Shown in pieces: positions 5,895 to 56,753 of a stretch of DNA of 64,000 bases (position 1 is its first letter; the number at the start of each line of letters is the position of its first letter). The position numbers were made by a program, and so were the translations under genes. This DNA is from a virus (taxonomy: Duplodnaviria > Caudoviricetes): positions 160,001-224,000 of IMG/VR virus record IMGVR_UViG_3300027804_000038. One strand, given 5' to 3'. Under the pieces are notes generated by a model. It did no database searches. It saw only the letters and a program-made list of their open reading frames with translations, and was not told the DNA's origin.

Positions 5895-8078
5895 ATGGGA
5901 TTAATATATTATAACATATCAACAGTAGGTGATTGTTCAAACACATCATCGGGGTCGTTTAGTTTATCAGTTAGTGGGGATTCTCCACCATTTAATATTA
6001 CATGGATATCGCCAATTTCAGGACTAACGTTTTCATCTCAAACAATTACAACAAATCCTTATGTTGTTAATAGTTTGAGTGCTGGAACCTACGCATTTCA
6101 ACTAACAGATTCATCTTTATTAACATCGGCTAGTACTGTAATAGGTTCCGTATCCATAGTCTCATCAACAACTATTAATTTAGGAGTATTTAAGGATACT
6201 ACCTGTGGACAAAATAACGGGATTATTACTGCTAATACCCCAACAAATTTTATATCAAATACAGTTTCTTTATTTAAAGATGGTGAATTATATGAAACAC
6301 AAAGTGGTGGTGGAACTATATTTAGTTTTATAAATTTAGGTCCTGGTATTTATTATTCTAATGTCGAATCTGAAGGTGGATGTGTTGGAACTAGTGATTC
6401 TGTAATTATTCACGGTTCTGAAACTTTAGATTTTGAATTATATGTTATTAATAATCCTGCGTGTTTATTAAACAATGGTAAGATATACGTAACAGGATTA
6501 ACTGGAACACCACCATTTACGTATGAATGGTCAACTAATGTACCATCAGGACAAACATCTTATTTTGTAACAGGGTTAACTAGAAATAATTATAGTGTAA
6601 CTGTAACTGATTATTATGGATGTAGTTTAACTAAGGGTGTTTTTGTTGATAATGCAAGTCCAATTAGTTTAGTTAATTATTCGGTAGTACAACCTACTTG
6701 TTTACAAAGCGACGGCTCAATAACTTTCACAATATCAGGAGGTAGTGCCCCATATTATTATTTATTAAGTAATGGATATGGAGTCGTTAGTTATTCAGAA
6801 CAAATAACATTTTCAGGTTTATCTTCAGGTTTATATGAATTAAATGTAACTGATGTTAGTTTGTGTACATTTAAAACAAATGCTAGATTAAGTACACCTA
6901 ACACTTTTTCAGTTGTTTCTATAACTTCTGAAAATTCAAAATGTGGTTATAAAAATGGTTCAGTTACCGTACAATTAAATGGAGGGGCTCCACCATATTT
7001 AATGTCGTTAATAAATTCTCAGGGTACCGAAATAAACATAAGTTCAACATTAACAAATACAACCTTTAATTCATTAAGTTCTGATACCTATACTTTATTA
7101 ATTAGGGACTCATTTAGTGCTTGTACTTATAGTGGAAGTACTGTTATTACTAACAATCCTTCTTATGATTTTTCAGTTAATTCTACGGGTACTACTTGTG
7201 GTAACAATGACGGGATAATACAAATATCAATAATAAGCGCCAGTACTACTGGTAATTCTTATACTTATTCACTTAGTAATGGAAGTTCATCAGTTGATAC
7301 CACTGCAACAACATATACTTTTACTGGTGTTTCTGCGGGTAATTATGAAATTTCTGTGGTAAATTCCGAACAATGTAAACAATTAGATTATGCGGTAGTA
7401 AGTAATTCGGAACCATATTCCATATTTATGTATCCGTCAACATGCTATAGAGGTACTGATGGTACAATACAAGTTTTAATTGAAGAATCTGACGGTCCAT
7501 TTAATTTAACTTGGAGTGATAATGTTAATGGACAGACTGGTATGTACATTACAGGATTAACTGCTGGAACATACTATTTAACCGTAAGTGGAGAAACAGG
7601 GTGTCAACAATTATTAAGTACTGATATAGTATGTGTACCATCAACCTCAACAACCTACTCATTTACATACGGTAGTGGGGTTAGAGAGTATAGTCCTTCA
7701 TCAAAATTAAGTTTAAAAAATATGCTTTATTCGGGATATTCTTCGTTAGTTACGGATGCTGAATATTGTAAATTAAACAGTGCTGAATTTAGTTTGAAAG
7801 TTACGATTGATTCAACTGACTACACATTCCCATTCTATTATACAACCACTTTCGATAGAATACCTACACTATCTTATTTTTCAGGTATTTTGGAAAATGC
7901 GATATTGAGTATTCCATATATTACAGATTGTACAGTTGATGCTGTTAATGGTTCTATTGAAATTGAATCTGAAGTTGTTGGAGGGGTTGAATACTATAAA
8001 GATGAGACAATAACATTTGATATCTTAATAGATTATGATATTAGTTGTTTGTCGATAAATGATATTGTTTGTCCATAA
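5895..8078 (+). CDS. SprB-repeat, Cys-rich beta-sandwich protein (putative virion adhesin or decoration)
   Basis: Repeated C...G.I.V...GG..PY.Y.(W/L)S...GL..G.Y.V.VTD..GC units, e.g. [56 protein letters not shown]. Confidence 0.7.
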
Positions 8079-9091
8079 TGGGATTAATTACAATAAATGA
8101 TATTTCAGGTATACCACCTTATAATGTAAGTGTATGTGACATTAATGAATTTTCATGTGTATATGTTACAACAATAACACAATATGTACCACCTTCAGTT
8201 GAGTTTAATTTGCCATCAGAATTTATCATGGCTCCAATTGTTTTAATTAAAATAGTTGACTCAACTGGATGTGTATTTACTTCTCAGTATCAATGTTTTA
8301 CATCACCAACCCCGACACCATCTATTACCCCTTCTATTACACCTACAATAAGTATTACACCTACAAACACACCTACAATAAGTATTACACCTACAAACAC
8401 ACCTACAATAAGTATTACACCAACAATAACATCAACCCCCACAATTACACCGTCAGTTACTCCGACATATACCCCAACTCCGTCAGTTACACCTACAAAT
8501 ACACCAACACCATCAATATCTTCACCACCATCTTTTATAAGTGCGATTTTATTTATTGAACCATATTCTGGTTCGACCGATATTGGACAATGGATGTATG
8601 ATAAAGGATTATCATTTTACGGATTTACAAATGGTAGACAACCTGCAACTAATCAAACAGATTTTAATATACAATTTAATAATTATGTTGACTTTTCAGG
8701 TTGGACAAGTGGCTCATTCCCTCAGAAATTTTACTCAGATGTGCCATCGACTTCAGGAGGAGTTGACGATTATGGTAATCCTATTGTTAAATATAACTTT
8801 AAAACCATGTCAATACCTGCAAATACTGTAGAAGACCAATCATGGTATACATGGATAATACCAACTGGACTGACAAATGGATTAATACAAAAAGAAATTG
8901 ATGTAAGTATTGATAACCCAAATGTGTTAACTAGTACTTTAATGGAATCAACAATTTACGCTTATACATTTACATATACAGGAAATACAATTCCAAGAGC
9001 GACATATAGAGTTTATACGTCATTCCCATCATCAAATTTCCAACTAAAAAATTCAACAAATATATATTTTAGAGGAAGTGTAGTTGGGTGA
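8078..9091 (+). CDS. Putative virion protein: N-terminal ~75-aa Cys module, Pro/Thr linker and C-terminal globular domain
   Basis: ATG at 8078 overlaps the upstream stop (TAATG), so it is preferred over the track start 8069. The N-terminus aligns by eye with ORFs 15589..15816 and 23658..23882, followed by a (TPT/SIT)n linker. Confidence 0.65.
8339..8421 (+). repeat. 30-bp coding tandem repeat, about 2.7 copies ([10 protein letters not shown])
   Basis: acctacaataagtattacacctacaaacac occurs at 8341-8370 and 8371-8400, with a partial copy from 8401. Confidence 0.9.
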
Positions 9092-9106: not shown

Positions 9107-12100
9107 ATGTCAAATTTTCCATATAAAAAATCTATTTCGCCAATACAATTACTCGGAACACAATCAGTTAACCGAGAAGCGACCTATGGTACTCATTTTA
9201 GTACTGATGGTATCGGTGGATACATGGAAGTTTTTAATGTAACTGATTTAATTTTTACGATACCAACAGGACAAACAGGTTCAATTGAATATACTGGTAA
9301 TACAATTCCTGTAAATTTATTGAAAGGAGGTGCTGGACCATTTTCAACTGACGTTTTAACTCTAAACCCTGATAATATATCTTCAGGTAGAAGAAAACTT
9401 GGGATGTTAGTTTATGTTTATGAATATGACCAAGTTTACCAATTTGCAATAGATAACTACGAAACACTTTGGAATAACGCCACTGGGGCAACAAATACCG
9501 TTGTTATTTCTGAATATGGAACAACCGTAAATACCTCAACACCTGAAGGACAACTTTTAGTATCATCATGGACCGCAAATACAATTGATGGGGTAAGTGG
9601 TGTAACAAGAAGTAATGCGGTTTGGAAAAAATATTATGGTACTAATTTGGCGGTTACGGGAGGTTCTTTTAACGGAGTAACTGGAACCTTAACTCTTACT
9701 AATATAACAGGTGGTACACAAAATATTACTGGATTTGGTTCAGGTGGAGGTGGAGGAGCTCCAATTACAGGAGGTACTTTTGATAGTAGTAATTTAGAAT
9801 TAGATTTAACTTCTTCAGCGGGAACAATAACTGTTACAGGTGTAACAGGATTGTATATTTCGGCAGGAACATATAGTAGTGGAAATACAACATTATCATT
9901 ATCAAACTCAACTGGTGGAACAATAACCATCACAGGTTTTAGTCAAACATTTTCAGGAGGGTCAGGAAATTGTATCAACCAATTATATTTGAATGAAATT
10001 TACCCATGCACTTCTGATATAAAAATTCAACCACTGTCAACAGGTAGAGTTTACTTTGGAAATAACAGTGGGGCTTCAGGTTTAACAATTGACTTTAATT
10101 CAGAAACGGCTCAAAAATCTGCAAGATTAGGATTAAACATAAACAATCCTGAATATACATTTGATTTTAAGAGTTTTGATAGAAAATCGGGATTTTTCTT
10201 TAGAGATGACATAGTGGCACCATTTGGTGATTGGAAACAAATTGCAATTTCAGGAGATACTGATAATGTATTAATGTATACTTCTTTTCAGCCTGATGCC
10301 TCAGGAAGTTTAGGGCCACATGGTATTGCAATTGGGTCAAGAGGATATGGTAATTCTAGTACTACAACAAATAACTCTTTAGGAAGAACTGGTGACACAT
10401 TTGTGTTTGCCTTTTCAAATACAAATGGGTTAAATATTATTAATGGACCTGGAACAAATACTGATGATTATATAAGATTTTATGCTGGTCAAACTGTAGG
10501 TAGTAATACTCCTGATGTTCATATACAAGGTAGTGGGTCAACAAGAGGATTTGTAGGGATAGGAACTACTGCAGTAACAAACCCATTACATGTTTATGCA
10601 ACTTCTAATCCATTGAGATTAGAGGGTCTACAATCGTCCGCTAATACAAGATTTTTAGTTGCCAATTCAGACGGTGTTGTAACTTACACAACAACCGCAC
10701 CTAGTGGAGGAGGAGGATTTAGTGCCGTATCTATTAATAATGTGGTACAATTTGACACAAGTGCGTCACAAACTATTAATTTCAGTGGTGTTAATATAAA
10801 CATAACTTCCGCATCTACTAACACATTAGTCTTTAGTGGAGGAGGTGTTACCGTACCTGGCTCAAATAATCAAGTATTAACCTCAAATGGGTCAGGAGGA
10901 ATTGTTGCTGAGTCATTGTTAACTTTTGATGGATTAGCATCATCTCCACCATTAAATGTGAATGGAATAACTATATGGAGAGGGAAAAACAACTCAAGTA
11001 AAAGTATTGGTATTGGGCCCCTAACTTTAAATAACACAACAAGTGGTGTTGCAAATATTGCTATTGGTCCAGGGTCACAAACTAATACAAATACTGGATA
11101 CAATAATATAAGTATAGGTCTTTCATCGTTATCTGCAAACACATCAGGAAATCGAAATATTGCGATAGGTACATACGCAATGAACCTAAATAGTGGTGGA
11201 TATGGTAACGTTGCGATAGGAGATAGGTCTTTATACAAACACTATATAGGGGACTTTAATATAGCTATAGGGGCTAGTTCTCTATATTATAGTGACACTA
11301 ATTCTTCAGGAACTGATTTTAATATTGCTATAGGTAGATGTGCAATGTTTTATAATTCAGGTGGAACTGAAAACATTGCTATAGGTAGAAGAGCTTTGGC
11401 AGGTAACAATCCTAATAAGCAGTTTGGTAATTTTAACATAGCCTTAGGGAGAGGAAGTTTATATCAAAATTATAACGGTGACTATAACATTGCTATAGGT
11501 AGAAGTTCACTATATTCTAATAGTACTGGTTTACACAACGTTGCGATTGGTAGGAATTCTAATGGTGAAAATACAACAGGAAATAATAATATATCTATAG
11601 GGTATAATTCATTATATTATAATACAACAGGGTTAGGAAATGTATCAATCGGAGCTGACAGTTTATACAGTAATGTATATGGTAACCATAATGTTTCTAT
11701 AGGTTATCTTTCAGGTAAAAACAGCGCTGGTAGTAGAAATGTATTCATTGGTAGAGAGTCAGGATTTAATGAAGTTAATTCTGATAGATTACACATTGCT
11801 AATTGCCAGACTAGGATACCACTAATTTTTGGTGAATTTGACACTAACAGATTAGGTATCAATACAACAACTGTAACTAATACTCTTCATGTTTCGGCAA
11901 CTACACATCCTGTTAGATTTGAAGGATTACAATCTTCTGCAAATACAAGATATTTGGTGGCGAATTCTGATGGAGTAGTAACGTATGTTACAGGTACAAC
12001 AGGTTCATTCTCAGGAGATTATTTACCTTTAAGTGGGGGAACAGTTACTGGAGGAACTTCTTTTACTGCGGGACTGACTGCAAATACTATTTCAGCAACA

Positions 12101-12571
12101 ACGTATTTAAATTTACCAATCGACCCTGATACGTATGTTACAGGTTTTACTTTAAATTCTAATACGGTAACCCTATCTCAAAATAGAAATGACCAATATT
12201 CAGCGTTTACAATAAATTTATCTGCATATACAGGAAATACAGGACTAAGTTATTATACGGCAACAACAATAGGTGATGGTGTTATAGATACTATTGATAC
12301 TACAATTGGATATAGACAAGTTAGTTATGATTATACTTTAACAAGTAATAATGGCTCAATAAGAAGTGGAACTTTTACTGCGAATTGGAATACAGGTTTA
12401 ACAATTATTAATTATTATGATGCTGGACCATCCGAAATTATGGAGTCAACTGATGTTATTGATAATCTTTCAGCAATTATAAATGGTACTGATATAGATA
12501 TAACCTTATCAGTCACACCTAATACTGAAACATGGGTGTTTAAATCACTTAAAAAACTTATGCCTGTATGA
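9107..12571 (+). CDS. Long tail-fibre-like protein with 17-residue NIAIG beta-roll repeats
   Basis: 1154 aa, G/S/T-rich; many N(I/V)(A/S)IG...G repeats with a period of about 17 aa, reminiscent of trimeric autotransporter head repeats; internal duplicated segment LEGLQSSANTR(F/Y)LVANSDGVVTY. Confidence 0.7.
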   Translation: MSNFPYKKSISPIQLLGTQSVNREATYGTHFSTDGIGGYMEVFNVTDLIFTIPTGQTGSIEYTGNTIPVNLLKGGAGPFSTDVLTLNPDNISSGRRKLGMLVYVYEYDQVYQFAIDNYETLWNNATGATNTVVISEYGTTVNTSTPEGQLLVSSWTANTIDGVSGVTRSNAVWKKYYGTNLAVTGGSFNGVTGTLTLTNITGGTQNITGFGSGGGGGAPITGGTFDSSNLELDLTSSAGTITVTGVTGLYISAGTYSSGNTTLSLSNSTGGTITITGFSQTFSGGSGNCINQLYLNEIYPCTSDIKIQPLSTGRVYFGNNSGASGLTIDFNSETAQKSARLGLNINNPEYTFDFKSFDRKSGFFFRDDIVAPFGDWKQIAISGDTDNVLMYTSFQPDASGSLGPHGIAIGSRGYGNSSTTTNNSLGRTGDTFVFAFSNTNGLNIINGPGTNTDDYIRFYAGQTVGSNTPDVHIQGSGSTRGFVGIGTTAVTNPLHVYATSNPLRLEGLQSSANTRFLVANSDGVVTYTTTAPSGGGGFSAVSINNVVQFDTSASQTINFSGVNINITSASTNTLVFSGGGVTVPGSNNQVLTSNGSGGIVAESLLTFDGLASSPPLNVNGITIWRGKNNSSKSIGIGPLTLNNTTSGVANIAIGPGSQTNTNTGYNNISIGLSSLSANTSGNRNIAIGTYAMNLNSGGYGNVAIGDRSLYKHYIGDFNIAIGASSLYYSDTNSSGTDFNIAIGRCAMFYNSGGTENIAIGRRALAGNNPNKQFGNFNIALGRGSLYQNYNGDYNIAIGRSSLYSNSTGLHNVAIGRNSNGENTTGNNNISIGYNSLYYNTTGLGNVSIGADSLYSNVYGNHNVSIGYLSGKNSAGSRNVFIGRESGFNEVNSDRLHIANCQTRIPLIFGEFDTNRLGINTTTVTNTLHVSATTHPVRFEGLQSSANTRYLVANSDGVVTYVTGTTGSFSGDYLPLSGGTVTGGTSFTAGLTANTISATTYLNLPIDPDTYVTGFTLNSNTVTLSQNRNDQYSAFTINLSAYTGNTGLSYYTATTIGDGVIDTIDTTIGYRQVSYDYTLTSNNGSIRSGTFTANWNTGLTIINYYDAGPSEIMESTDVIDNLSAIINGTDIDITLSVTPNTETWVFKSLKKLMPV

Positions 12572-20888: not shown

Positions 20889-20913
20889 AGGGGGTGATTT
20901 TCACCCTTTTTTT
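20889..20913 (+). terminator. Rho-independent terminator between convergent genes
   Basis: AGGGGGTGA-TTT-TCACCCTTT stem followed by a T run; lies between the resolvase (+) and the 914-aa gene (-). Confidence 0.75.
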
Positions 20914-23656
20914 ATTCCTGACACGGTAGTAATCTAACAATACCGTTAGCCTTTAATGACGAGTAAGTTGAGAAATTACCAACAGCAATTACTCTATTTT
21001 GATTGTCAGAAATTAAACCTTGTGAATTTGAATTAAATCCACTTGTTGTTAAGAATTGGTTAACTAATAATCCGTCTTGAGTTATTTTAAATATTCCGTT
21101 AGTTGTTGTTCCATTATAATTTGATAATGCGAATGGTACAATAAATACTAAATTACCATCTGCGGTTTCAGTACTATCATACGCATATGCTGTAACTGAA
21201 AGACCAGTTCCTGCATTAGTATTAAATGTTGAATTTAAGGTTCCTGTTAAAGATAATTTAATGATACCTCTTGCAACTGAAGAACCATTATATGTTGTAA
21301 ACGTACCTGTTATAAATAAATTATTATTTGATTCTAAAATAGAACGAGTCGTACCATTAAACCCTGTACCATATACAAAGGTACCATCAATTGCTCCATT
21401 ACTCGTTAATTTAACTATCCTATTTGCAGAAACACCATTATATGTTGTAAAGCTACCTGTAACAACAATACTATCATCTGATAGTACTACTAAATTATTT
21501 GGTATTAAATTGAATCCTGAACCTAAAGGATTAAACGTAGAATCAAAACTACCATCAGTATTTAATCTACAAATTTTACCAACCGAGTTACCGTCAAATT
21601 GAGTTAAATATCCTATACAAATCAATTTACCGTCTGATTGTTTTTTAATTGATATTATAACACCATTTGGACCAGTTCCGTAGTTAAATGTGGTATCTAA
21701 ACTACCGTCAGTATTTAATCTACAAAAATTAGGAACAGATACTCCACTATAATAATCAAAATAACCTGAACAAACTAACTTACCATTAGATTGCTCCGTG
21801 AAGCCTAAAGGTCTCATCAATAAAAATGTTGCTCCACTAAAACCAACTTCAGTATTGAATGTTTTATCGTATACACCGTCTTTACTAATTCTAATTAAAC
21901 CATTTCCTATTGAATTAGAGTATCCTGAAAATGCTCCAAAAACATAATAATTATTATAAATACTTGATTCATAAACACCTAATGTTGATTGTGACCCTGA
22001 AGGTAAAAATCCTTCACCTGAAACAAAACTAAAATCAATACCAACCATTTGACATGAACTTGTAGATGGGGTTAATGTTATTGTCGGAGTTATAGTCGGA
22101 GTAACAGTTGGAGTTGGTGTTGGAGTTTGAGATGCAACTGGCACACAGAACCTACATTCAAACAAATTACCACTATCTATTGATTGTAATATTGATGTTG
22201 CGGGACTGAAAACATCACTATCATATGTAACACAAGTTGATTTACCATTTATAGTTGCTAAAAATGTGGAACCAGTATTATAAGGTAGTGGTTCAGATAT
22301 AATATATTTAAACCCATTAGAACAGTCAGTTAATTGTTTATTAAAGTTACTTGAGAAAATAGACTCAAATGTTCTAAATTCAACAGTATCAACAATCGAA
22401 CAATTTTTAGACGCATTTGTTGGAGTAGGAGTAGGGGTTGAAGTTAAGAATGGGAAGTAAAATGTTGAACCTGACACATCTACTGATTTACCATAACAAA
22501 CTTGAGTAGATGTTGGTGTTGGAGTTATTGTTGATGTTGGAGTTAATGTTGGGGTAGGTGTTGGAGTAGTTCCTGAAGTAACACTACAATCAAAAGATGC
22601 ATTAAAATTAAAAGTTAAACATTCATCAGTAGTTGTTGGTGTCGGTGTAGGACAGAAAGGACCAAAAATAGAACTATCTAAGTCAGGACATAATGAGCTC
22701 GAATTTGTTGGTCCAAATAAAAAGCATTCGCCACCCACACAATCAGATAGACACCATCTAGTGTCTCCTGTATTATAATATATAAAATATGGTAAAATTC
22801 CTGAAGGATTGTGAAATACGTCATAACCATCATAACCACCATAGTTATAATATGTCCCATCATATTTAGTAGTACTACTAAAATTTGTAAACAGACAGAA
22901 ACTATTATATGTACATCCAGTCCATGGTGTTGACGTAGGACTTGGTGTTATTGTTGGTGTAATACTTGGTGTAGGTGTAGGTGTACAGTCAGGTGATGGT
23001 AGTGAAGTTTTAGTTATTGTTGGAGTTGGAGTATTTGTTGGAGTTATACTAGGGGTTGCGGTTATTGTTGGTGTGTTAGTTGGAGTTATAGTATTTGTTG
23101 GGGTTATACTTGGTGTTGGAGTATTTGTCCTTGTTGGTGTATTTGTTGGTGTTAAACTAGGTGTTGAGGTTATAGTTGCGGTTATACTTGGAGTCGGAGT
23201 TATAGTTGCAGTTATACTTGGAGTCGGAGTTATAGTTGAGGTATTTGTTGGAGTTTGTGTTTGGGTTGTTGTTGGAGTCGGAGTTTGGGTTGAAGTAATT
23301 GTTGGGGTTTGAGTTGTAGTTGGTGTTGAAGTAATTGTTGGAGTTGGACTCTTTGTAGGTGTAGGTGTTGGAGCTGGAGTTGCCGAAGGAGTTTGAGTAG
23401 GACCTGGCACGCAAGGATAAACTGCGGTACAAGAAGCACAAGATGCATATGAGGTAGTGTCCGCACTATATAAATTGTATACAGTTACTCCTGATGTAAA
23501 ACCAGTTGCAATTGTTTGAGAACAACCTGTGTACTTATCTGTTACTAAATAGTATGTTAAACCTGTTGTAAAAGTATTAGGCGGTGACACCGTTTGAATT
23601 TGAAACGTGTCTCCGTAACAACATCCTGAAAATCTATACCAAATTATCGAGCTCAA
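20912..23656 (-). CDS. 914-aa protein: Cys-rich N-module, long Pro/Thr linkers and C-terminal delta-60 (DUF5122-like) beta-propeller
   Basis: The reverse complement of 23656 downward reads TTG AGC TCG ATA ATT TGG (MSSIIW) and the ORF ends ...PCQE-TAA at 20912, so it is on the minus strand despite the track label. Repeats include [10 protein letters not shown]...[17 protein letters not shown] and [10 protein letters not shown]...[13 protein letters not shown]. Confidence 0.75.
23169..23238 (-). repeat. 30-bp coding tandem repeat within a long Pro/Thr low-complexity tract (about 22960-23400)
   Basis: gttatagttgc(g/a)gttatacttggagtcgga twice plus a partial copy; encodes [10 protein letters not shown] units. 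Confidence 0.85.
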
Positions 23657-39164: not shown

Positions 39165-40088
39165 TTGGAAAACTATTATGATATTTTAGGAGTCGCGGAA
39201 ACCGCTACACAAGATGAAATTAAAAAGGCTTACAGACAAAAGTCAAAAGAACATCATCCTGATAAGGGAGGTAACGAGGAAACTTTTAAAAAGATAAATG
39301 AGGCGTATACTACTTTGGGTGACGATAATAAAAAAGTCCAGTATGATAACCAAAGAAAGAACCCATTTGGTAATAATCCTTTCGGTGATATATTTGGAGA
39401 TTTTTTTGGAGGTTTTGGAGGACAACAAGTTAAAAGGGCTCCTGATAAGATTATAAATGTACAAGTAGGTGCCGTAGATTCTTATTTAGGTAAAGAAATA
39501 AATATATTTTTTAACAGGAAAAATAATTGTCAACCTTGTAATGGACAAGGAGGAACTAGAAATACTTGTAAAAAATGTAATGGTAGCGGATTTATTACAC
39601 AAAGAGTTGGTAATGCGTTTTTCTCTAACATTATACAAACTCATTGTAATGAGTGTAATGGTAAAGGTTATAGTCTAACTAATGTTTGTCAATCATGTTT
39701 AGGAGAGGGAAGAATCGACGAAACAAAATCAGTCTCAGTTAATCTCCCAAAAGGAATATCTGACGGGCAGTTAATAAAGGCTGGGGGAATGGGTGATTAC
39801 TCTAACGGTATGTTTGGTGATGTTATATTTAAAATTAATATTATACCACAAGCGGGATTTGAAAAATCAGGTTCCGACTTAGTTTATAATAAATTTATGT
39901 CATTAGATGATTTTACTAAAGAAAAAATCCAAATTCCACATCCATCAGGTGATTTAAATTTAACATTACCTGACGACATAGACACAAGTAAACCACTTAA
40001 AGTAAAAGGTAAGGGTTACCAAAATGAAAATGGTGATTTATATGTTAGAATGTATGTTAGACATAGAAAAAATAAGTTAGATTATTGA
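39165..40088 (+). CDS. dnaJ: DnaJ (Hsp40) co-chaperone
   Basis: J-domain YYDILGV...HHPDK, short G/F region, four CxxCxGxG repeats and a C-terminal domain (GD(V/L)); TTG start. Confidence 0.92.
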   Translation: MENYYDILGVAETATQDEIKKAYRQKSKEHHPDKGGNEETFKKINEAYTTLGDDNKKVQYDNQRKNPFGNNPFGDIFGDFFGGFGGQQVKRAPDKIINVQVGAVDSYLGKEINIFFNRKNNCQPCNGQGGTRNTCKKCNGSGFITQRVGNAFFSNIIQTHCNECNGKGYSLTNVCQSCLGEGRIDETKSVSVNLPKGISDGQLIKAGGMGDYSNGMFGDVIFKINIIPQAGFEKSGSDLVYNKFMSLDDFTKEKIQIPHPSGDLNLTLPDDIDTSKPLKVKGKGYQNENGDLYVRMYVRHRKNKLDY

Positions 40089-40955
40089 ACTAACTAACTT
40101 ATCAACATCAAACATTTCGGAAATTGACATATAAGGACACTCGTGGTTTATTCCCTCAAATGAGTAGTCAAATAAATATGAATCTATCAATTTTACTGTG
40201 TCTGAAGGTAAATTAGCAACAATGTTATTGTGTAAATCGTAACCAAAATTTTTGGGTGAAGTACCAATCCAAATTACGTTAGACTTTAGACCAAGAGCTG
40301 ACGATGCATGTTGTAAACATGAATCAATTAGGATTCTTTTATCTGACACTAAAAGAATTGAGAATAAATCATTAGATGATAACTCATCATTAACAACCTC
40401 AACACCACTGAGTTGTCTAGAAGATGGTTTACAAATTTGAATTATATGGTGAGTCCTTTCAAATTTTTTAACCAAAGACTGAGATACGTCAAAAGGAATA
40501 TCTCTAGTCCATGAATATGGTTGTTTTGAATTAAAGGCACCTCCATTAGTTTGTATAACTAAAATAGGTTTTTCTCTGTACCATTTATTAGATGACCTTT
40601 TTTGTGGTAAATTTAAGTTAAGTACTGGAGTTTGATTTTTATAATCAATACCTAACAAATCAGCCCAATTTTCAATTAGATGGGATTTTTTATGAATATG
40701 ATTTGATTGATAATATGGTTCATGTCTGAAAATTATGGTGTCCTTATCTTTTATATAATCATCATAAAAATATTGAGTGTTACCTAATTTATAAACTCTA
40801 TATATCGAATCATTATTTAAAAATACTTCAGGATATGATGCAACGACTACTATTTTTCTATCTGAATATTTTTCTTTAAGTGAAGATAGTAATGAAGTTG
40901 CCGCAATATTTTTTCCTAAACCACCCTGTATGTGCCAAACTATATATTTTTCCAT
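40077..40955 (-). CDS. GT9-like (heptosyltransferase fold) glycosyltransferase
   Basis: IQGGLGKNIAATSLLSSLKEKY at the N-terminus and ILIDSCLQHASSALG near the C-terminus, resembling the GT9 GLGD and DSG..H.A.ALG motifs. Confidence 0.7.
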   Translation of the reverse strand: MEKYIVWHIQGGLGKNIAATSLLSSLKEKYSDRKIVVVASYPEVFLNNDSIYRVYKLGNTQYFYDDYIKDKDTIIFRHEPYYQSNHIHKKSHLIENWADLLGIDYKNQTPVLNLNLPQKRSSNKWYREKPILVIQTNGGAFNSKQPYSWTRDIPFDVSQSLVKKFERTHHIIQICKPSSRQLSGVEVVNDELSSNDLFSILLVSDKRILIDSCLQHASSALGLKSNVIWIGTSPKNFGYDLHNNIVANLPSDTVKLIDSYLFDYSFEGINHECPYMSISEMFDVDKLVSSII

Positions 40956-41398
40956 TATTTTTTTGTCCCAATTCTTATAAATTTATACCAAACACGCTCA
41001 TGAATAAAGTAAACTATAGGTTTAAATAACAATTCACCAATACCAATTAGAGATGATAGTTCTAATGAAATACCTAAAGAAAAAGCTGAACCAACTGTTA
41101 TTAAAGTACCTAATATACGATAAGAAATTGTTTTTAAAATGTGTCTTGTAAGTACCGATTCTTCTTTAATTGTAGTTATATAGGCTACAGTATTTTTTAA
41201 TTCACATACTCCTTTACAGCTAATATGCCACTTAAATTCATTTAATTCGGGAACCCAATCCTTAGTTGTATAAGTATGACCATCAACAATTATATCGGAA
41301 ACTAAAATTTCATTACCGTTTTCAATTAGTCTCCATCTCTCACATTCATTTGTTGAGTTAGTATTGTATCTTATTTGAAAAGTTTTTATATTCTTCAT
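40955..41398 (-). CDS. Two-domain protein with a C-terminal DUF2061-like membrane domain
   Basis: RHILKTISYRILGTLIT...KPIVYFIHERVWYK matches the DUF2061 pattern. Confidence 0.7.
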   Translation of the reverse strand: MKNIKTFQIRYNTNSTNECERWRLIENGNEILVSDIIVDGHTYTTKDWVPELNEFKWHISCKGVCELKNTVAYITTIKEESVLTRHILKTISYRILGTLITVGSAFSLGISLELSSLIGIGELLFKPIVYFIHERVWYKFIRIGTKK

Positions 41399-41793
41399 AA
41401 TTTACCTTCAAGCCTCATTTGTTCCCTTATTTTAGTTGCAGAAATGTCGTGTATTTCTTGTGGAGGGATTCTTTCAATAATATCATATCCAACACCTCTA
41501 CCAAATTCTATTGAACATATATCAGGTATAACCATCACTTTAACCCTATCACTCAATTCTGAATAGTGTAACTCAATATTACTTTTAACTTCTTGTGCGG
41601 TAAATGGATTTTTTTCATCTGGCTCAATATCTCTAATACAAATTAGAACATTCTTACCTTCATCCATAGCTTGTTTAAATAGCTCCTGGTGTCCTTTATG
41701 TAGAGGTTGCCACCTACCAACAAACATTGCAAATTGACCATCTTTTGATTTTAAAGAGGATTGAACGTGAAGTTTTTTATCCCAATTACTCAT
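41395..41793 (-). CDS. HxGH-superfamily nucleotidyltransferase (cytidyltransferase/NadM-like)
   Basis: FVGRWQPLHKGH and ISATKIR motifs; 4-nt overlaps with cysC and the DUF2061 gene. Confidence 0.8.
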   Translation of the reverse strand: MSNWDKKLHVQSSLKSKDGQFAMFVGRWQPLHKGHQELFKQAMDEGKNVLICIRDIEPDEKNPFTAQEVKSNIELHYSELSDRVKVMVIPDICSIEFGRGVGYDIIERIPPQEIHDISATKIREQMRLEGKL

Positions 41794-42218
41794 TTTCTAT
41801 TAAAAGGTATTAAATTAAGACATTCGTCTATAGTTTTATTTGTTGTATCGATATTAATAAAGTCTTCAGTTGGTTGTTCATATTCCTTAACAAAATTATG
41901 TTCTCTACCCCTGATTTCACTTGTGTGAACATATATTTCACAAACTTCATTAGTTTCCTTTAATGAGTTTCTCATTTTTTTATAAGGAGCAACAACAGAA
42001 ATAACAACAGTAAATCCCTTGTGGTCTAAAAATCTAGCTAAATCTAATACAGATTGGATATTTTTAATTCTACCTTCTGAAGAATAATCAAAGTTTTGAA
42101 ATAGTTCTCTCAAACCATCTCCATCAACATTAATACAATTATCTGAACACTTCTCAATTAAAGCGTTTGCTAATGTTGTTTTTCCTGCACCAGGTTGACC
42201 TGTAAACCAATAAATCAT
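41790..42218 (-). CDS. cysC: Adenylyl-sulfate (APS) kinase, compact form
   Basis: IYWFTGQPGAGKTTLA P-loop, DGDGLR, GRIKNI, VISVVAPY, EIYV and YEQP. Confidence 0.8.
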   Translation of the reverse strand: MIYWFTGQPGAGKTTLANALIEKCSDNCINVDGDGLRELFQNFDYSSEGRIKNIQSVLDLARFLDHKGFTVVISVVAPYKKMRNSLKETNEVCEIYVHTSEIRGREHNFVKEYEQPTEDFINIDTTNKTIDECLNLIPFNRK

Positions 42219-42478
42219 TGTGATATGTAGTTTTTACCCGATTGAATTGAATCGTTAATATCCTGTAGTTGGTTTTGAGTTAATCCTGACATAAACCAAT
42301 CTTTATTTTTCATCAATTCTAAATGTTTATAGTTTCTTTCTACAGTATTTTTTTTTGTGTCAATATCGTCATTAATAAGTTTAGACCCATCGATTATACC
42401 ATTTATTAGGTTCACTGAGTCAAATGCTGAATTAATTGACCTTGCAACATTTGGAACTCTTTCTTTTTCGTTATCCAT
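42215..42478 (-). CDS. Hypothetical helical protein, possible fibre-associated chaperone
   Basis: 87 aa; the DSVNLIN...RNYKHLELM..KDW pattern recalls small ORFs found beside phage fibre genes (recollection, not a search). Confidence 0.45.
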   Translation of the reverse strand: MDNEKERVPNVARSINSAFDSVNLINGIIDGSKLINDDIDTKKNTVERNYKHLELMKNKDWFMSGLTQNQLQDINDSIQSGKNYISQ

Positions 42479-42484
42479 ATTATT

Positions 42485-43300
42485 TTATTTATAGTTAAAT
42501 TTATTAAAAAACCAATTATAATGATTATATAATCTATTACAATTTTCAATACCTAATATCTCATTATAATCTTCTTTTTGAGGAGAAAGAGTATTTTTAA
42601 TGGTATGGTCACCAAAAATACCATGGATTACATCATTTTCATGAGTTAATTGTTCTATTCTCTCAAAATCATGTTGATATGGAGGTATTTCTAAATAATT
42701 ATAAATTCGTTTTAGTTCTAATTCAGGATTTGAAGTTAAATCTTCAAATCGGATAAATAAAATATCTTTATCGTATCCTTGGTGAATTGATTCATATAAC
42801 CATTCTAAAGATGGACCAATTGGCGGAGATATCGAAAAGTGGTCAATTCTTGAATTAGTTGTCATATTTTTCAGCTCAGAAACATTTACTAAAAGAGGGT
42901 CCTTATGTGAGTTCTTTCTATAGTTTTTTTCCATTGAAGAAAAAATAGACCTAAGGTCTCTAACCATACAGATAATTTTTGGAGTACCGTAAAACCATTT
43001 TAAGAAATGGTAGTTACCAATCCAAGCTCTACTCTTATCAATAACATAAGGTCTTTCAGTAATACCATCAAAAAAACCATTTAAACCTTTTTCACAAAAA
43101 CTTCTTAATCCCTCTTTCATTTCATCAGGATTTTGAGCTTTAAATGCGTCTCCTGTTGAATATATTGTTCTGGCTTGTAAAATTAATTCTATAACACCTG
43201 ATGTTGGTGTAGAATATATGTCAGGATTTTGCATTAATATATTTTGAATTAATGTCGAGCCCGCTCTAGGTAAAGAGGCATTAAAAAATATTTTCTTCAT
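42485..43300 (-). CDS. PAPS-dependent sulfotransferase (Sulfotransfer_3-like)
   Basis: 5'-PSB loop SLPRAGSTL, 3'-PB motif RDLRSIFSS, and IRFEDL. Confidence 0.85.
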   Translation of the reverse strand: MKKIFFNASLPRAGSTLIQNILMQNPDIYSTPTSGVIELILQARTIYSTGDAFKAQNPDEMKEGLRSFCEKGLNGFFDGITERPYVIDKSRAWIGNYHFLKWFYGTPKIICMVRDLRSIFSSMEKNYRKNSHKDPLLVNVSELKNMTTNSRIDHFSISPPIGPSLEWLYESIHQGYDKDILFIRFEDLTSNPELELKRIYNYLEIPPYQHDFERIEQLTHENDVIHGIFGDHTIKNTLSPQKEDYNEILGIENCNRLYNHYNWFFNKFNYK

Positions 43301-43337
43301 GGGTTAATTTTAACCTATAAAGTTATAAATGTCAAAG

Positions 43338-44855
43338 TTAAGCTAATAAAACTTTATATGAATTACCATTAATTATAATTTCCCAAGTTCTATAAGATTT
43401 ACAAGATTCATAAGTTATTGTTCCTGCGGGAAATGACGAGCTTCCAACCACTAATTGGTTATTTGCGGTTGCAAATGCGTTATGACCAATAATAATTGAC
43501 GAGCGATAATTATAAGAGTTTGTATTACAACCTATAGCAATATTGTTCGAACCTGTAGTATTATAATATAATGATTTATAACCTATTGAAATATTATTGG
43601 CTCCTGATGTATTATAATATAATGACTTATAACCAATCGAAATTAGATAACTAGCTCTTGTACTATTTACGGTTGACCTAAATCCTACTGAAACATTTTT
43701 ACTTCCATTATTATTTGAATACAATGAACTTCTACCTATTGCAATATTAAAACTTCCACAGTCATTTAAATACATTGAACCTCTACCCATTGCTATGTTA
43801 TACGACCCTCTATTTCCATAACTAGTACTACCAGCCAAAGCTCTCCTACCAATTGCAATATTACCTGAACCATTCCTGTTACATAATAATGCGCATCTTC
43901 CTATTGAAATATTAAAATCGTTATACTGACTTAAATTGTAGTACATAGATGATTGACCTATTGCGATATTGAAGTCTGATTTATTTAAATTTAGTCTTAA
44001 AGAATCGTAACCTATTGCAATGTTTGAATCACCATCACAACTAGTTCTCATGGAGTTTGTACCTATTGATATATTTTTAGTACCATTGATATTAGAGCGT
44101 TGAGAATTAACACCTAATGATATGTTATTATCCGCTTTATTATCAATTAGAGTACTAGCCCCTAACGAAATATTATTACTACCACTAGCTGAGTAATATT
44201 GAGAATCATTACCCAAAGAAATGTTATTAACTCCCCCACTTCTTCTTTTTTGACTATTCCTACCTATTGCGATATTATCACAAAAATTTGCAGAAATACA
44301 ACAACCCTCTAAAGAAGAAGTTCCTATTCCTATATTATTAGAACCAGTAGATAAATTTTTTAAAGTACTTTTACCTATAGAGACATTATTATCTAGTAAA
44401 GATACAGGTAATTTAAATGCAACATTACCTATCGAAATATTACTAGAGTCATTTCCATTGCCCCTACCAATACAAACACTATTAACATCCAAAGTCGGAG
44501 ACGACACTGTACCATCAAAAGTCAATAAAGATTCTGCAACTGTTCCACCAGACCCATTAGATGTTAATACCTGATTGTTTGAACCTGAAATACTAAACGA
44601 AGGTGTTCCACTAAAGGTAAGTTTATCACTTCCATCTATAATAGTAATATTAACACCACTAAAACTTTTCAGAGCAATGTTTCCACCTGTAACACCAGAT
44701 ATATCTGAGACACCGTTACCAACAGTGTAAGCACTTGTTATGTAACTCGTAAGTGCGGAATATACCTCCCAATATATACCATTCCATTCCCACGTTTTAT
44801 TATCGTAAGTATATTGTTGATTTGGTGACGGACTATTTGGAAAATTAATTGGCAT
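43338..44855 (-). CDS. Tail-fibre-like protein with 17-residue NISIG/NIAIG repeats
   Basis: N-terminus MPINFPNSPSPNQQYTYDNKTWEWNG typical of fibre modules; the repeat block is paralogous to 9107..12571. Confidence 0.7.
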   Translation of the reverse strand: MPINFPNSPSPNQQYTYDNKTWEWNGIYWEVYSALTSYITSAYTVGNGVSDISGVTGGNIALKSFSGVNITIIDGSDKLTFSGTPSFSISGSNNQVLTSNGSGGTVAESLLTFDGTVSSPTLDVNSVCIGRGNGNDSSNISIGNVAFKLPVSLLDNNVSIGKSTLKNLSTGSNNIGIGTSSLEGCCISANFCDNIAIGRNSQKRRSGGVNNISLGNDSQYYSASGSNNISLGASTLIDNKADNNISLGVNSQRSNINGTKNISIGTNSMRTSCDGDSNIAIGYDSLRLNLNKSDFNIAIGQSSMYYNLSQYNDFNISIGRCALLCNRNGSGNIAIGRRALAGSTSYGNRGSYNIAMGRGSMYLNDCGSFNIAIGRSSLYSNNNGSKNVSVGFRSTVNSTRASYLISIGYKSLYYNTSGANNISIGYKSLYYNTTGSNNIAIGCNTNSYNYRSSIIIGHNAFATANNQLVVGSSSFPAGTITYESCKSYRTWEIIINGNSYKVLLA

Positions 44856-44864
44856 ATCTTTTCG

Positions 44865-46079
44865 TTATAAATAATATAATATTTCAGCAGTTCCTAAGAA
44901 AGTTGCATTAGCCCCCAATGGGGTAATACAAACCCACATTTCATCTAAAGTACCATTCACATTAGAACCTACTCTTATTTGGTTATCATCCACTTTTATT
45001 GTTGTTAATGCTGATGTTCCAGCCTCCCCAATTAATGAAGACATAATGTGTCCACTACTTGTTATTGTGGTAGCCCCAACACCTAATGAATATTGGAATG
45101 GTGAGTTAGGAATATCAGTCCAAGTTGGTGTCGCTGACAAGGTTGGGTTAAACTCAATGGTCATTAAATAGTTATCATTTGATGTATTTAATAAACTTAA
45201 ACTACTATATTGTGATGTAACAGATTTATAGGATTGTTTTAATCTATACCCAATATATGGATATTTTGTACCTGAAGTCGATAAGGTTGCAGTTGATGAA
45301 TGTATAACCCCAACGGTACTATATAAACCATTTAATGCACCTTCAGTAGAAACTTGACTACATATCATATCAAAACTACCCGAACCCGACCCAACTTGTC
45401 TTATCTCATATCTTATAGGTTGGTTTGGTGAACTCATATAAACTAAACTTTCATTATTAGAACAATTATGTTCAGTAAAATAAAATGTTTGTCCAGATAA
45501 AGCAAGTCCAAATCTCAACCTACCAACTCCTAACCATTGGTAATCAACAGTCATTAACTGAGTGTTTGACCATATAAGATTTGTTGGGTCAAATTCATTT
45601 GTTTCCCAAGTTGTTGTTGACGCACTAAATATTGTTGTACCTGACCTCCAAATTTGAAAACTTATCGTATTTGATGTTCCGTTACTTTCCAAGAAGAACC
45701 CGTCAAAAACTGAATTATAAGTTGATGCGGTTGTTGTAGTAAAACATCCCACTCTTTTTATTACATTTGTTTCTAACTGAAAATTTGAAAAACTTCCCTC
45801 AAATAACTGACTCTTACCAGGTTGGTATATTGGGTGTGTTTTTGTTTGTCTAATTACCAAATCATTATTTGAAGATGTTGACATTCTAACTCTCGCATAC
45901 TCCTTATTAAAAACTGATGTCGCAGTTCCTGCGGTTACTTCATTAACTTGTAATGGGTTTTTGTCGTAAACATGCTTAATGTCCAATAGATTTTGTACCG
46001 CAGCAGTCCTCAATCTACCAAAAGCGTCAAGATTTGGACTATCAGAATATTTTACCGCATTATTATATATAAAACTCAT
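44865..46079 (-). CDS. Putative virion structural protein (beta-rich)
   Basis: DAFGRLRTA...RQTKTHPIYQPGKSQ...DYQWLGVGRLRFG; ATG at 46079 overlaps the upstream stop, whereas the track uses TTG 46091. Confidence 0.55.
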   Translation of the reverse strand: MSFIYNNAVKYSDSPNLDAFGRLRTAAVQNLLDIKHVYDKNPLQVNEVTAGTATSVFNKEYARVRMSTSSNNDLVIRQTKTHPIYQPGKSQLFEGSFSNFQLETNVIKRVGCFTTTTASTYNSVFDGFFLESNGTSNTISFQIWRSGTTIFSASTTTWETNEFDPTNLIWSNTQLMTVDYQWLGVGRLRFGLALSGQTFYFTEHNCSNNESLVYMSSPNQPIRYEIRQVGSGSGSFDMICSQVSTEGALNGLYSTVGVIHSSTATLSTSGTKYPYIGYRLKQSYKSVTSQYSSLSLLNTSNDNYLMTIEFNPTLSATPTWTDIPNSPFQYSLGVGATTITSSGHIMSSLIGEAGTSALTTIKVDDNQIRVGSNVNGTLDEMWVCITPLGANATFLGTAEILYYL

Positions 46080-46768
46080 ATTAAATACCAATTTCCGCCC
46101 CTAACCATACAGGTTAAAGACATATAGTTTATGTTCATATCAACGTAATTATTGTTGTCAATTGTTCCTGATGAAGGTGTTAATCTTATTCTATAAGTAC
46201 CACAAATCCCTGCTTCATCTTTTATTATTAAATAATAACCCTCTTTACCTACTACCGATGGTAATACCAAATCAACATTACTATTACCACTTATACCCCA
46301 ATATGTTTTATCCCAAGTTAAAGATTGTCCTGTAGTAATTCCTGTTGTTGTATAATATCCCGCATCAGGTGATAAAGGACCTGGTACCGAGAACGGCTGA
46401 ACCCATTGTTGTGAATCACCATCATCAATCCAAACCAATTCAACACCTGTATTTGTATTGAACCACCTATCCCCACTTATAATAATTCCTGTAGGTGTTG
46501 ATGCAGATATATAATATTGTAGACCTCCACTCGAAGACCCTGAAACAGGACCCCAATAAGCATAACCTGTACCATCGGTTAATAAAGCATATCCATTTTG
46601 TTCAGTTCCATTAGAATAGGTAAAACCGCTATAAACTGTTAAACCTGAAGAAAAAATTGGATTAACAGGAATTGAACCACCTATACGATAAACAACACCT
46701 GTTGAAAGGTCAGATTGAAGTACGTAATTATAACTATCCTTAATTAATTGGTCTTTAATATCGGCCAT
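46076..46768 (-). CDS. Short tail-fibre-like protein
   Basis: GDRWFNTNTGVELVWIDDGDSQQWVQ fibre module; first gene after the palindromic TATTTAT element. Confidence 0.5.
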   Translation of the reverse strand: MADIKDQLIKDSYNYVLQSDLSTGVVYRIGGSIPVNPIFSSGLTVYSGFTYSNGTEQNGYALLTDGTGYAYWGPVSGSSSGGLQYYISASTPTGIIISGDRWFNTNTGVELVWIDDGDSQQWVQPFSVPGPLSPDAGYYTTTGITTGQSLTWDKTYWGISGNSNVDLVLPSVVGKEGYYLIIKDEAGICGTYRIRLTPSSGTIDNNNYVDMNINYMSLTCMVRGGNWYLI

Positions 46769-46792: not shown

Positions 46793-46804
46793 TATTTATA
46801 AATA
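46793..46804. promoter_or_regulatory. Palindromic double TATTTATA element between divergent genes
   Basis: TATTTATAAATA is a perfect palindrome carrying the motif on both strands; ATGs at 46768 (-) and 46807 (+). Confidence 0.55.
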
Positions 46805-56656: not shown

Positions 56657-56753
56657 AATATTAGAATATTAATTTTTATTATATATAAATATTTCACTAA
56701 GATATTAAAAGGAAATAGTAAGTGGATTTATATATTTATAAATAAAAACAATA

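Follow-up and report, generated by a model that had tools for sequence, protein, structure and literature searches.

The window analyzed here is a 64-kb stretch (bases 160,001-224,000) of the IMG/VR phage record IMGVR_UViG_3300027804_000038, a genome of 293,850 bp that is rated complete and has a G+C content of ~0.29. Five of its genes, encoding a sulfotransferase (ST), a kinase of the adenosine 5'-phosphosulfate (APS) kinase family, a small HxGH nucleotidyltransferase (NTase), a DUF2061 protein and a GT9-like glycosyltransferase, constitute, as judged from comparative genomics, a self-contained and horizontally mobile sulfation cassette. We conclude that the cassette is very probably a module for sulfation dependent on 3'-phosphoadenosine 5'-phosphosulfate (PAPS), and that the NTase family probably represents a non-canonical sulfate adenylyltransferase that forms APS. 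In the scheme that we prefer, this mobile cassette has been appended to a late tail-fibre operon and acts on an O-glycan of the virion; taken as a whole, we judge that scheme about equally likely to be right or wrong.

The five core genes recur as a unit both in relatives of the phage and in otherwise unrelated phage contigs, so that the gene set singled out in an initial annotation of this region is conserved. Three relatives were found in IMG/VR by way of the ST. Two of them, L005 and L006, are syntenic with the window over 20 kb and share ~80-97% identity in the cassette, while L007 is more distant (49-67% in the cassette, 66% for the ST). The order ST, (variable open reading frame [ORF]), kinase, NTase, DUF2061 protein and GT9-like protein is the same in all three. 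The order ST, kinase, NTase, (77-aa ORF), DUF2061 protein and GT9-like protein is also seen in L010-L015, contigs of 200-320 kb in which the cassette, at 36-85% identity, marks one end of an extensive cluster of GT2, GT34, GT4, GT9, GT25 and methyltransferase genes. Additional copies are present in contigs binned into metagenome-assembled genomes (MAGs), L026, L035 and L028, the last in rearranged form. In L012, L014, L026, L028 and L035, no other ORF of the window's genome was matched within 10 kb on either side of the cassette. Since these surroundings share nothing else, the five core genes appear to travel jointly between unrelated backbones.

The cassette cannot be called rare, since its metagenomic homologues number in the thousands: a set of 5.8 billion proteins contains 7459 homologues of the NTase and 2948 of the GT9-like protein. 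Because of these numbers we regard the cassette as a common trait of uncultured large phages and not as a lone oddity. When the 6.7-kb region was compared by megablast with 50,697 phage records, no match emerged, and thus the phage has no close cultured relative among them. The NTase of the window phage is 84-85% identical to those of L010-L014, as against only 36-55% for the other cassette proteins, which points to unusually strong constraint or to a recent exchange of the NTase gene alone. Its best matches in cellular bins are MAG contigs of Bacteroidota, and the top one, L026, bears phage genes. A host among the Bacteroidota, as presumed in the initial annotation, is thus no more than a possibility.

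Any PAPS pathway requires an enzyme that forms APS. Throughout the 293,850-bp genome there is no ATP-sulfurylase match above cut-off and no gene of the PAPS_reduct family (cysH/cysD). Since no Sat or CysD family match is found, the NTase is the only APS-forming candidate. An exhaustive HMMER search returned 1282 representatives of its relatives, many of them longer; in the longer proteins the NTase is joined, at its N- or C-terminal side, to a kinase domain scoring above the TIGR00455 apsK cut-off (157.9-257 bits against 138.7). We also scanned species-representative genomes with a 10-member NTase alignment. The 80 loci returned are from Marinimicrobia/Fidelibacterota, Flavobacteriales, other Bacteroidota, Patescibacteria, Poseidoniales, Thaumarchaeota and others, and in 71 of the 80 an APS kinase is immediately upstream of the NTase or fused to it.

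Four loci from Nitrospiraceae have no kinase. There the NTase follows a sulfite-reductase-like hemoprotein and a thioredoxin-dependent APS reductase (TIGR02055, 272 bits against a cut-off of 235), an order that suggests an assimilatory sulfate-reduction operon using the mini NTase as its ATP sulfurylase, because that is the only step the operon lacks. These MAG loci are L061:6715-10459, L069:6689-10459, L080 and L082, with a hemoprotein of ~820 aa. Furthermore, Sat (PF01747) was found in none of five genomes that carry the kinase-NTase pair (for one of them the deposit is a lone chromosome record of 970 kb), and the same five gave nothing convincing for CysD (PF01507 matches of only 20-22 bits, in proteins of ~440 aa).

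The neighbourhoods of the pair also indicate sulfate activation. Four sulfotransferase families adjoin it, namely Sulfotransfer_3 in the window, Sulfotransfer_2 in phage L025, Sulfotransfer_5 in L049 and L040, and fusions of Sulfotransfer_1/3 with glycosyltransferases in L023. A CysQ-like gene of the Inositol_P family lies beside the pair in L104, and P0378, a metagenomic protein of 432 aa, is a fusion that combines the NTase domain with a DHHA1 domain. The DHH/DHHA1 phosphoesterases include pAp phosphatases, which clear the by-product of sulfotransfer. Because of the fusions, these neighbourhoods, the Nitrospiraceae gene order and the genomes free of Sat and CysD, we consider PAPS-dependent sulfation well supported.

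By sequence, the NTase falls outside the ATP-sulfurylase family and is an NMNAT-like mini nucleotidyltransferase. It matches PF01467 with 33.1 bits (cut-off 21) and carries the HxGH and C-terminal ISxTxxR motifs as GRWQPLHKGH and ISATKIR; among 44 relatives R27, H32, H35 and S118 are invariant, and T120 and R123 nearly so. The nearest solved relatives are archaeal NMNATs, to which the N-terminal half alone aligns, and the scores against NMNAT models are below cut-off (TIGR01527, 31.8 bits against 181.2; PRK01153, 38.4 against 127). The chemistry first proposed for this region, from sulfate through APS and PAPS to a sulfated acceptor, is backed in outline by comparative genomics, but the HxGH enzyme within it is no recognizable ATP sulfurylase.

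The kinase scores 67.2 bits against PF01583, above the cut-off of 21.1, and its best PDB matches are without exception APS kinases. When aligned with bona fide APS kinase domains (alignment A4), it retains the P-loop GQPGAGKT, the DGDGLR motif and R37, R50, R83 and R103; the conserved residues of the APS site include the R of EGR and the N of KNI, in A4 and in the PDB alignments alike.

Assignment of the ST to its family is firm at the sequence level. It passes PF13469 (64.2 bits, cut-off 27) and PF00685 (40 bits, cut-off 22), and the segments resembling the 5'-phosphosulfate-binding (5'-PSB) and 3'-phosphate-binding (3'-PB) motifs, LPRAGSTL and VRDLRSIFSS, are conserved, with PRxGST and RD.R..xSS (nearly) invariant among 10 homologues. 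Its only significant PDB sequence matches are to TPST1 (8e-6; identity 17-20%). A fold search with an AlphaFold2 model (predicted local distance difference test [pLDDT] 87.5) returned sulfotransferases only; the 13 best Foldseek matches are TPST1/2 (E 5e-9 to 1e-7; template modelling score [TM] ~0.55), followed by polyketide and heparan-sulfate 3-O-sulfotransferases, the latter with TM ~0.50-0.54. These structural matches leave the acceptor unfixed. Homologues of 23-33% identity occur in the Synechococcus phages S-SKS1, S-SRM01 and S-SCSM1 and in marine single-virus genomes. Where annotations exist, these records show neither a kinase nor an NTase close by, and in the unannotated marine-virus records L016 and L017 nothing matched the kinase or the NTase of the window. 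In S-SRM01 the homologue (32% identity) adjoins a glycosyltransferase and a nucleotide-sugar epimerase.

The label GT9-like, given to the 292-aa protein in the initial annotation, appears right at the level of the modelled fold; the window protein itself has no Pfam GT9 match. Neither a Pfam, an NCBIfam nor a PDB sequence match was found for it, and a 23-member profile was without a PDB match as well, while PF01075 gave weak matches in 11 of the 23 homologues (best 4.3e-5). An AlphaFold2 model built from the 23 homologues (pLDDT 84.1; predicted TM score [pTM] 0.84) has GT9 enzymes as its top 32 Foldseek matches (3tov, 1psw, 2h1h, 4rap/4rb4), with the exception of two NDH-PSI supercomplex chains (9grx, 7wff), at E from 3.5e-11 for the Veillonella protein 3tov to 3e-6 and TM ~0.55-0.68. 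The GT9 matches include the lipopolysaccharide (LPS) heptosyltransferases WaaF and WaaC and the protein heptosyltransferase TibC. Additionally, the atlas neighbours of the protein include a cluster in which 45% of the members carry GT9, and some of its relatives are called 'ADP-heptose:LPS heptosyltransferase' in JGI records. In its DSCLQH segment D211, S212 and H216 are invariant, which may correspond to the GT9 nucleotide-sugar motif D(S/T)GxxH, and the invariant Lys of an N-terminal GGLGK stands at what we take to be the position of the catalytic Asp of WaaC.

The DUF2061 protein combines a soluble N-terminal domain with a two-helix membrane domain; the match (50.7 bits, cut-off 23.1) covers residues 87-137 and profile positions 1-51 of 52. 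It is split into genes of 77 and 72 aa in L010, L014 and L015, and the DUF2061 domain stands alone, without the N-terminal partner, in L012, L013 and L024. An atlas search with the fusion returned DUF2061 clusters exclusively. DUF2061 proteins accompany sulfate-activation genes, and a DUF2061 gene is also present in the nodH-nodPQ loci of Mesorhizobium. The 87-aa ORF has no match in Pfam, PHROG or NCBIfam. It is present in L005 and L006 (69% identity), has its place taken in L007 by an unrelated ORF of 202 aa, and is missing from L010-L014, L026, L028 and L035.

The cassette forms the distal part of a run of nine minus-strand ORFs, all in the same orientation and arranged head to tail from 46768 to 40077, with junctions in transcription order of -16, +9, +37, +6, -4, -4, -4 and -1 nt (Table 1). 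All nine ORFs of the run that had been described at the outset were located, as were the 1-4 nt overlaps that connect its final five genes (87-aa ORF, kinase, NTase, DUF2061 protein and GT9-like protein). Most of the gene labels given then also match library families, but 'fibre' for the 230-aa protein has no family match behind it (none in Pfam, PHROG or NCBIfam). The N-terminal 79 aa of that protein are 78% identical in L005 and L006. Homologues of the 408-aa protein are labelled 'virion structural protein' in 124 phage records, mainly of T4-like cyanophages. The 505-aa fibre (Ser 16%) contains 15 copies of N[IV][SA][IVL]G with a period of ~17 residues, and a homologous fibre is encoded directly upstream of the ST in L005, L006 and L007. 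A larger fibre of 1154 aa (window 9107-12571, plus strand), with 13 NIAIG-type repeats, has as homologues the 505-aa fibre and the fibres encoded ahead of the cassette in L005 and L007.

Table 1. Features of the window and of related loci (positions without a locus prefix are those of the window).
Position	Strand	Feature	Match or basis
46793-46804	.	Palindrome TATTTATAAATA, reading TATAAATA on both strands; candidate bidirectional late promoter	position
46076-46768	-	230-aa Gly/Ser/Thr/Tyr-rich protein, presumed fibre or fibre-associated	first gene of run
44865-46091	-	408-aa virion structural protein	phrog_1645, 1e-49
43338-44855	-	505-aa Ser-rich repeat fibre, tail-spike-like	phrog_4636, 7e-39
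43307-43335	-	Sigma-70-like TTGACA-17-TAAAAT, 11/12; possible internal promoter	37-nt gap upstream of sulfotransferase gene
42485-43300	-	271-aa PAPS-dependent sulfotransferase	Sulfotransfer_3 2.7e-17; Sulfotransfer_1 3.9e-10; phrog_27463 2e-39
42215-42478	-	87-aa ORF, variable non-core slot	no family
41790-42218	-	142-aa APS-kinase-family P-loop kinase, short-lid subfamily; putative APS + ATP -> PAPS	PF01583 2.2e-18
41395-41793	-	132-aa HxGH (HIGH-type) nucleotidyltransferase; putative ATP + sulfate -> APS + PPi	PF01467 7.4e-8
40955-41398	-	147-aa protein, soluble N-terminal domain (~80 aa) + DUF2061 two-helix membrane domain	PF09834 2.4e-13
40077-40955	-	292-aa GT-B glycosyltransferase-like protein, GT9 (heptosyltransferase) fold	AlphaFold2 model + Foldseek
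20912-23656	-	(Thr-Pro)n/Ser mucin-like linker protein	candidate O-glycosylation/sulfation substrate
8069-9091	+	(Thr-Pro)n/Ser mucin-like linker protein	candidate O-glycosylation/sulfation substrate
L008:6578-7324		Kinase-NTase fusion, Xylella phage Salvo	among DNA-metabolism genes
L009:5593-6324		Kinase-NTase fusion, Stenotrophomonas phage DLP6	among DNA-metabolism genes
L024:8001-9261		Kinase-NTase fusion, T4-like phage contig	followed by DUF2061 gene only
L025:8001-9649		Kinase-NTase fusion, phage	with Sulfotransfer_2 gene

The palindromic late motif that had been placed at the head of the run was found there. It lies within the 38 nt that separate the first fibre gene from a divergent gene on the plus strand and is 25 nt upstream of the ATG of that fibre gene. 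Each strand of TATTTATAAATA reads TATAAATA, which we take to be the T4-type late -10 consensus. A second copy of TATTTATAAATA, again with TATAAATA on both strands, lies at 56733-56744 of the window. In this window, which is AT-rich, the octamer TATAAATA shows no enrichment (21 found, 20.9 expected), and its role as a late promoter is thus suggested by position only. Scanning of the region detected no terminator-like site between the nine genes, with matches at background; the sole minus-strand candidate is a weak 5-bp stem within the ST gene. The sigma-70-like site in front of the ST gene is the best match in the region and would yield a near-leaderless transcript. It is kept in L005 and missing from L007, where the gap between fibre and ST is 2 nt; across the region such matches are at background (58 found, 53.5 expected). 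Transcription from the putative late promoter of TATAAATA type probably extends through the fibre genes into the cassette.

Linkage to fibre genes, the other regularity suggested at the outset, holds in four different contexts and not in all. In addition to the arrangement shared by the window, L005 and L006, the cassette of L007 is flanked on one side by a fibre bearing an S74 chaperone domain and on the other by genes for a T4-type neck protein and large terminase, that of L026 is followed after 110 nt by a short tail fibre (phrog_12032), and that of L011 abuts a convergent gene for a collagen-like fibre of 1969 aa. Because of the late-operon position and this repeated adjacency to fibre genes we favour the virion as the site of the acceptor, at a probability that we put slightly below even. 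The purposes suggested at the outset for such a modification, camouflage and mimicry of polysaccharides bound by Bacteroidota, are speculative.

The proposed reaction sequence would begin with adenylylation of sulfate by the NTase, the step suggested by genomic context. The short-lid kinase homologue would then convert APS to PAPS, as its family membership predicts, and the ST would move the sulfo group from PAPS onto the acceptor. The GT9-fold protein may add a sugar, possibly from an ADP-sugar, and so make or extend the acceptor glycan, with both donor and acceptor being predictions, and the DUF2061 protein would be a small membrane protein that partners the NTase and the kinase. Our preferred acceptor is an O-glycan on the Ser-rich fibres with 17-residue repeats or on the (Thr-Pro)n stalk proteins, a preference that follows from the probable readthrough of the cassette with fibre genes. 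In the (Thr-Pro)n proteins Pro, Thr and Ser make up as much as 80% of 30-residue windows; the terminal repeats of the larger one resemble beta-propeller units of the 'delta-60' type.

Several results weigh against this scheme, some of them concerning the activation of sulfate. The match of the NTase to ATP sulfurylase PF01747 (17.3 bits) is below the cut-off of 24.3 and covers only 24 residues around HxGH, and the 44-member family profile retrieved NMNAT and PPAT from the PDB and no ATP sulfurylase at E up to 10. The kinase scores 75.9 bits against TIGR00455, where 138.7 would be needed, and is under the cut-off of every NCBIfam APS-kinase model; its mobile lid (the KGLYKK...FTG segment) is short of 4 + 14 = 18 residues, deletions that are common to the phage subfamily and the fusions P0246 and P0262. 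In L023, an Acidobacteriota MAG (GCA_035299465.1), an NTase-APS kinase fusion adjoins CysD and CysN, and because these two sit alongside it the NTase would be dispensable there for making APS. Moreover, kinase-NTase fusions in Xylella, Xanthomonas and Stenotrophomonas phages are found amid DNA-metabolism genes with no sulfotransferase annotated nearby. Other results concern the virion as acceptor. The cassette moves independently of fibre genes, and the nearest solved relatives of its ST are protein-tyrosine and not carbohydrate sulfotransferases.

The same PAPS chemistry might instead serve a host envelope glycan (LPS core, O-antigen or capsule) and thereby block superinfection or prevent progeny from adsorbing to the debris of lysed cells. 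We consider this rather unlikely. In its favour, classical GT9 enzymes heptosylate the inner core of LPS at the membrane, WaaC and WaaF are among the matches of the model, and the cassette encodes a membrane protein, the DUF2061 protein. In L010-L014 the cassette ends a cluster of 10-15 glycosyltransferase and methyltransferase genes, with GT25 and a second GT9, that is typical of LPS-like glycan synthesis, and the cellular counterpart L023 is a surface-polysaccharide locus. In the latter, a pair of ABC-2 exporter genes accompanies two giant fusions of glycosyltransferase and sulfotransferase (882 and 796 aa). Sulfotransferases are also common in the surface-glycan hypervariable region of Pelagibacter, and the sigma-70-like site ahead of the ST could permit expression of the cassette independent of the fibres. 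However, the place behind the fibres in a late operon, the 2-nt fibre junction of L007 and its position between fibre and neck/terminase genes all argue against this. Pfam and NCBIfam searches of the phage's cassette showed no flippase, polymerase, ligase or lipid-carrier glycosyltransferase, and the benefit of modifying a cell late, when it is near lysis, is less obvious.

Because the nearest solved structures to the ST are TPSTs, the enzyme might sulfate side chains of fibre proteins directly (Tyr, Ser/Thr or hydroxylated residues), with the GT9-like protein acting separately. The sequence match to TPST1 and the 13 leading fold matches are consistent with this idea, as are the Tyr content of the fibre-like proteins (5-8%), the collagen-like fibre abutting the cassette of L011 and the prediction of Iyer et al. 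for tail-collar and collagen-like proteins (PMC2938197). We nevertheless find direct protein sulfation improbable, since the TM of the TPST matches is modest and like that of the heparan-sulfate 3-O-sulfotransferases, at an identity of 17-20%, and since the ST is tightly co-inherited with a glycosyltransferase, with many more in relatives. Additionally, the catalytic Glu of TPST2 presumably corresponds to an invariant Thr in the phage ST.

Far less credible is the proposal that the kinase-NTase pair activates another substrate, either in NAD salvage (ribosylnicotinamide kinase plus NMNAT, NadR-like) or in making an ADP-sugar by way of a sugar phosphate (HldE-like) for the GT9-like protein, with the ST drawing on PAPS of the host. 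The best family and PDB matches of the NTase are NMNATs, it has a weak match to phrog_7878 (HldE-like, 9e-4), and fusions occur without a sulfotransferase in the Xylella and Stenotrophomonas phages. ADP-heptose is the donor of GT9 enzymes, and a domain from the NTase superfamily is part of HldE. Against this, the kinase belongs to the APS-kinase family and not to RNK or PfkB, the fusion partners exceed the apsK equivalog cut-off, the NTase stands behind APS reductase and sulfite reductase in Nitrospiraceae, no GT9-like gene is beside the pair in most loci, and every NMNAT equivalog score is far under its cut-off (31.8 against 181 bits for TIGR01527). An ordinary auxiliary set for sulfur assimilation that raises cysteine synthesis in the host is the least credible reading, with almost no probability left to it. 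Genes of cysC type are reported among viral auxiliary genes, although our literature searches did not return them; this role is set aside because the 294-kb genome has no PAPS or APS reductase, and the ST and a glycosyltransferase are always part of the cassette. A role in DNA modification was rejected, as no DNA-binding or base-modifying domain is present and all contexts indicate sulfate activation.

Sulfation of a virion O-glycan, the reading that we prefer, can be compared with several known systems. The two-step logic of canonical PAPS synthesis by Sat or CysDN with CysC, adenylyl transfer followed by 3'-phosphorylation, would be the same here, and animal and fungal PAPS synthases have both activities fused, as do relatives of the cassette in either order. 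In contrast to the canonical enzymes, the putative phage adenylyltransferase is of only ~110-130 aa and has no PUA-like domain and no significant PF01747 or CysD match. The rhizobial NodP/NodQ and NodH proteins likewise couple a dedicated PAPS supply to a carbohydrate sulfotransferase, and the Mesorhizobium locus has its DUF2061 gene; however, NodPQ are homologues of CysD and CysN-CysC, the system belongs to cells and acts on a known acceptor, a lipo-chitooligosaccharide. The phage ST gives a partial match of only 22 bits to NoeE. TPST1/2 have PAPS-binding motifs in common with the ST but are eukaryotic Golgi enzymes.

Glycan clusters of other phages, such as that of S-SRM01, are also glycosyltransferase islands near structural or host-interaction genes. 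Mycobacteriophage virions are glycosylated by phage-encoded glycosyltransferases, and cyanophage P-SSM2 carries LPS genes. We know of no such cluster that has its own PAPS-synthesis genes or sulfates anything. GT9 heptosyltransferases, including TibC/AAH, share the GT-B fold with the window protein, which is shorter (292 against 320-390 aa) and without a Pfam GT9 match. TibC modifies Ser residues of beta-helical repeat adhesins, which would make an attractive analogy to the neighbouring Ser-rich fibre with its 17-residue repeats.

The nearest published idea is that of Iyer, Abhiman, de Souza and Aravind (2010), who predicted that bacterial operons with a dioxygenase, a sulfotransferase and a PAPS synthetase modify tail-collar and collagen-like proteins (PMC2938197). 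Those operons likewise co-encode the PAPS supply for a predicted sulfation of phage-tail-like or collagen-like proteins, but they are bacterial and centred on a hydroxylase, of which the cassette has none, and they use conventional PAPS synthetases without a GT9-like or DUF2061 gene. A 2023 study of OM43 phages called the role of phage sulfotransferases unclear (PMC10580990). Sulfotransferases are carried by the hypervariable surface-glycan islands of Pelagibacter. Our literature searches, in a searchable literature that is incomplete, turned up no account of either a phage cassette for PAPS synthesis or an ATP sulfurylase of NMNAT-like type, in agreement with the initial statement that no characterized phage system resembles this one.

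Judged from its gene content, the cassette would be a phage surface-glycan modification island to which a PAPS pathway has been added, and its mini NTase possibly a new class of ATP sulfurylase. We hypothesize further, tentatively and as the less probable outcome, that the ~130-residue NTase is a third kind of ATP sulfurylase which, with the APS kinase, forms a miniature PAPS synthase of streamlined marine lineages that phages have captured for sulfation of virion glycans. The lineages in question are Marinimicrobia, Flavobacteriales, Poseidoniales and, with APS reductase, Nitrospiraceae. If these proposals are true, phages would own a complete portable sulfation system of donor synthesis, transferase and glycosyltransferase and would be independent of the sulfur metabolism of the host. 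The virion would be the first sulfated phage particle, and sulfation would join the short list of decorations that bacterial viruses put on themselves or their hosts. The fixed negative charge of sulfate would change adsorption, host range, aggregation with marine polysaccharides and resistance to grazing and enzymes. Moreover, a non-orthologous replacement of ATP sulfurylase would be widespread in abundant marine lineages that possess an APS kinase or APS reductase yet otherwise seem unable to make APS, and the scoring of sulfate assimilation and sulfation capacity in metagenomes would change.

Neither a psbA gene, in the 293,850-bp genome, nor a tRNA gene, in the 64-kb window, was found. Four genes for GT2-family glycosyltransferases are located elsewhere in the phage genome (G000:C1 81543-81866, 94354-94629, 108072-108368 and 293188-293646) and, because they lie outside the window, the glycan-building capacity of the phage exceeds that of the cassette. 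Finally, a full-length gene for a DnaJ-like chaperone, with a J domain and CxxCxGxG zinc-finger repeats, occupies 39165-40088 on the plus strand of the window. It is convergent with the GT9-like gene, overlaps the 3' end of that gene by 12 nt and has a counterpart of 46% identity in L005.

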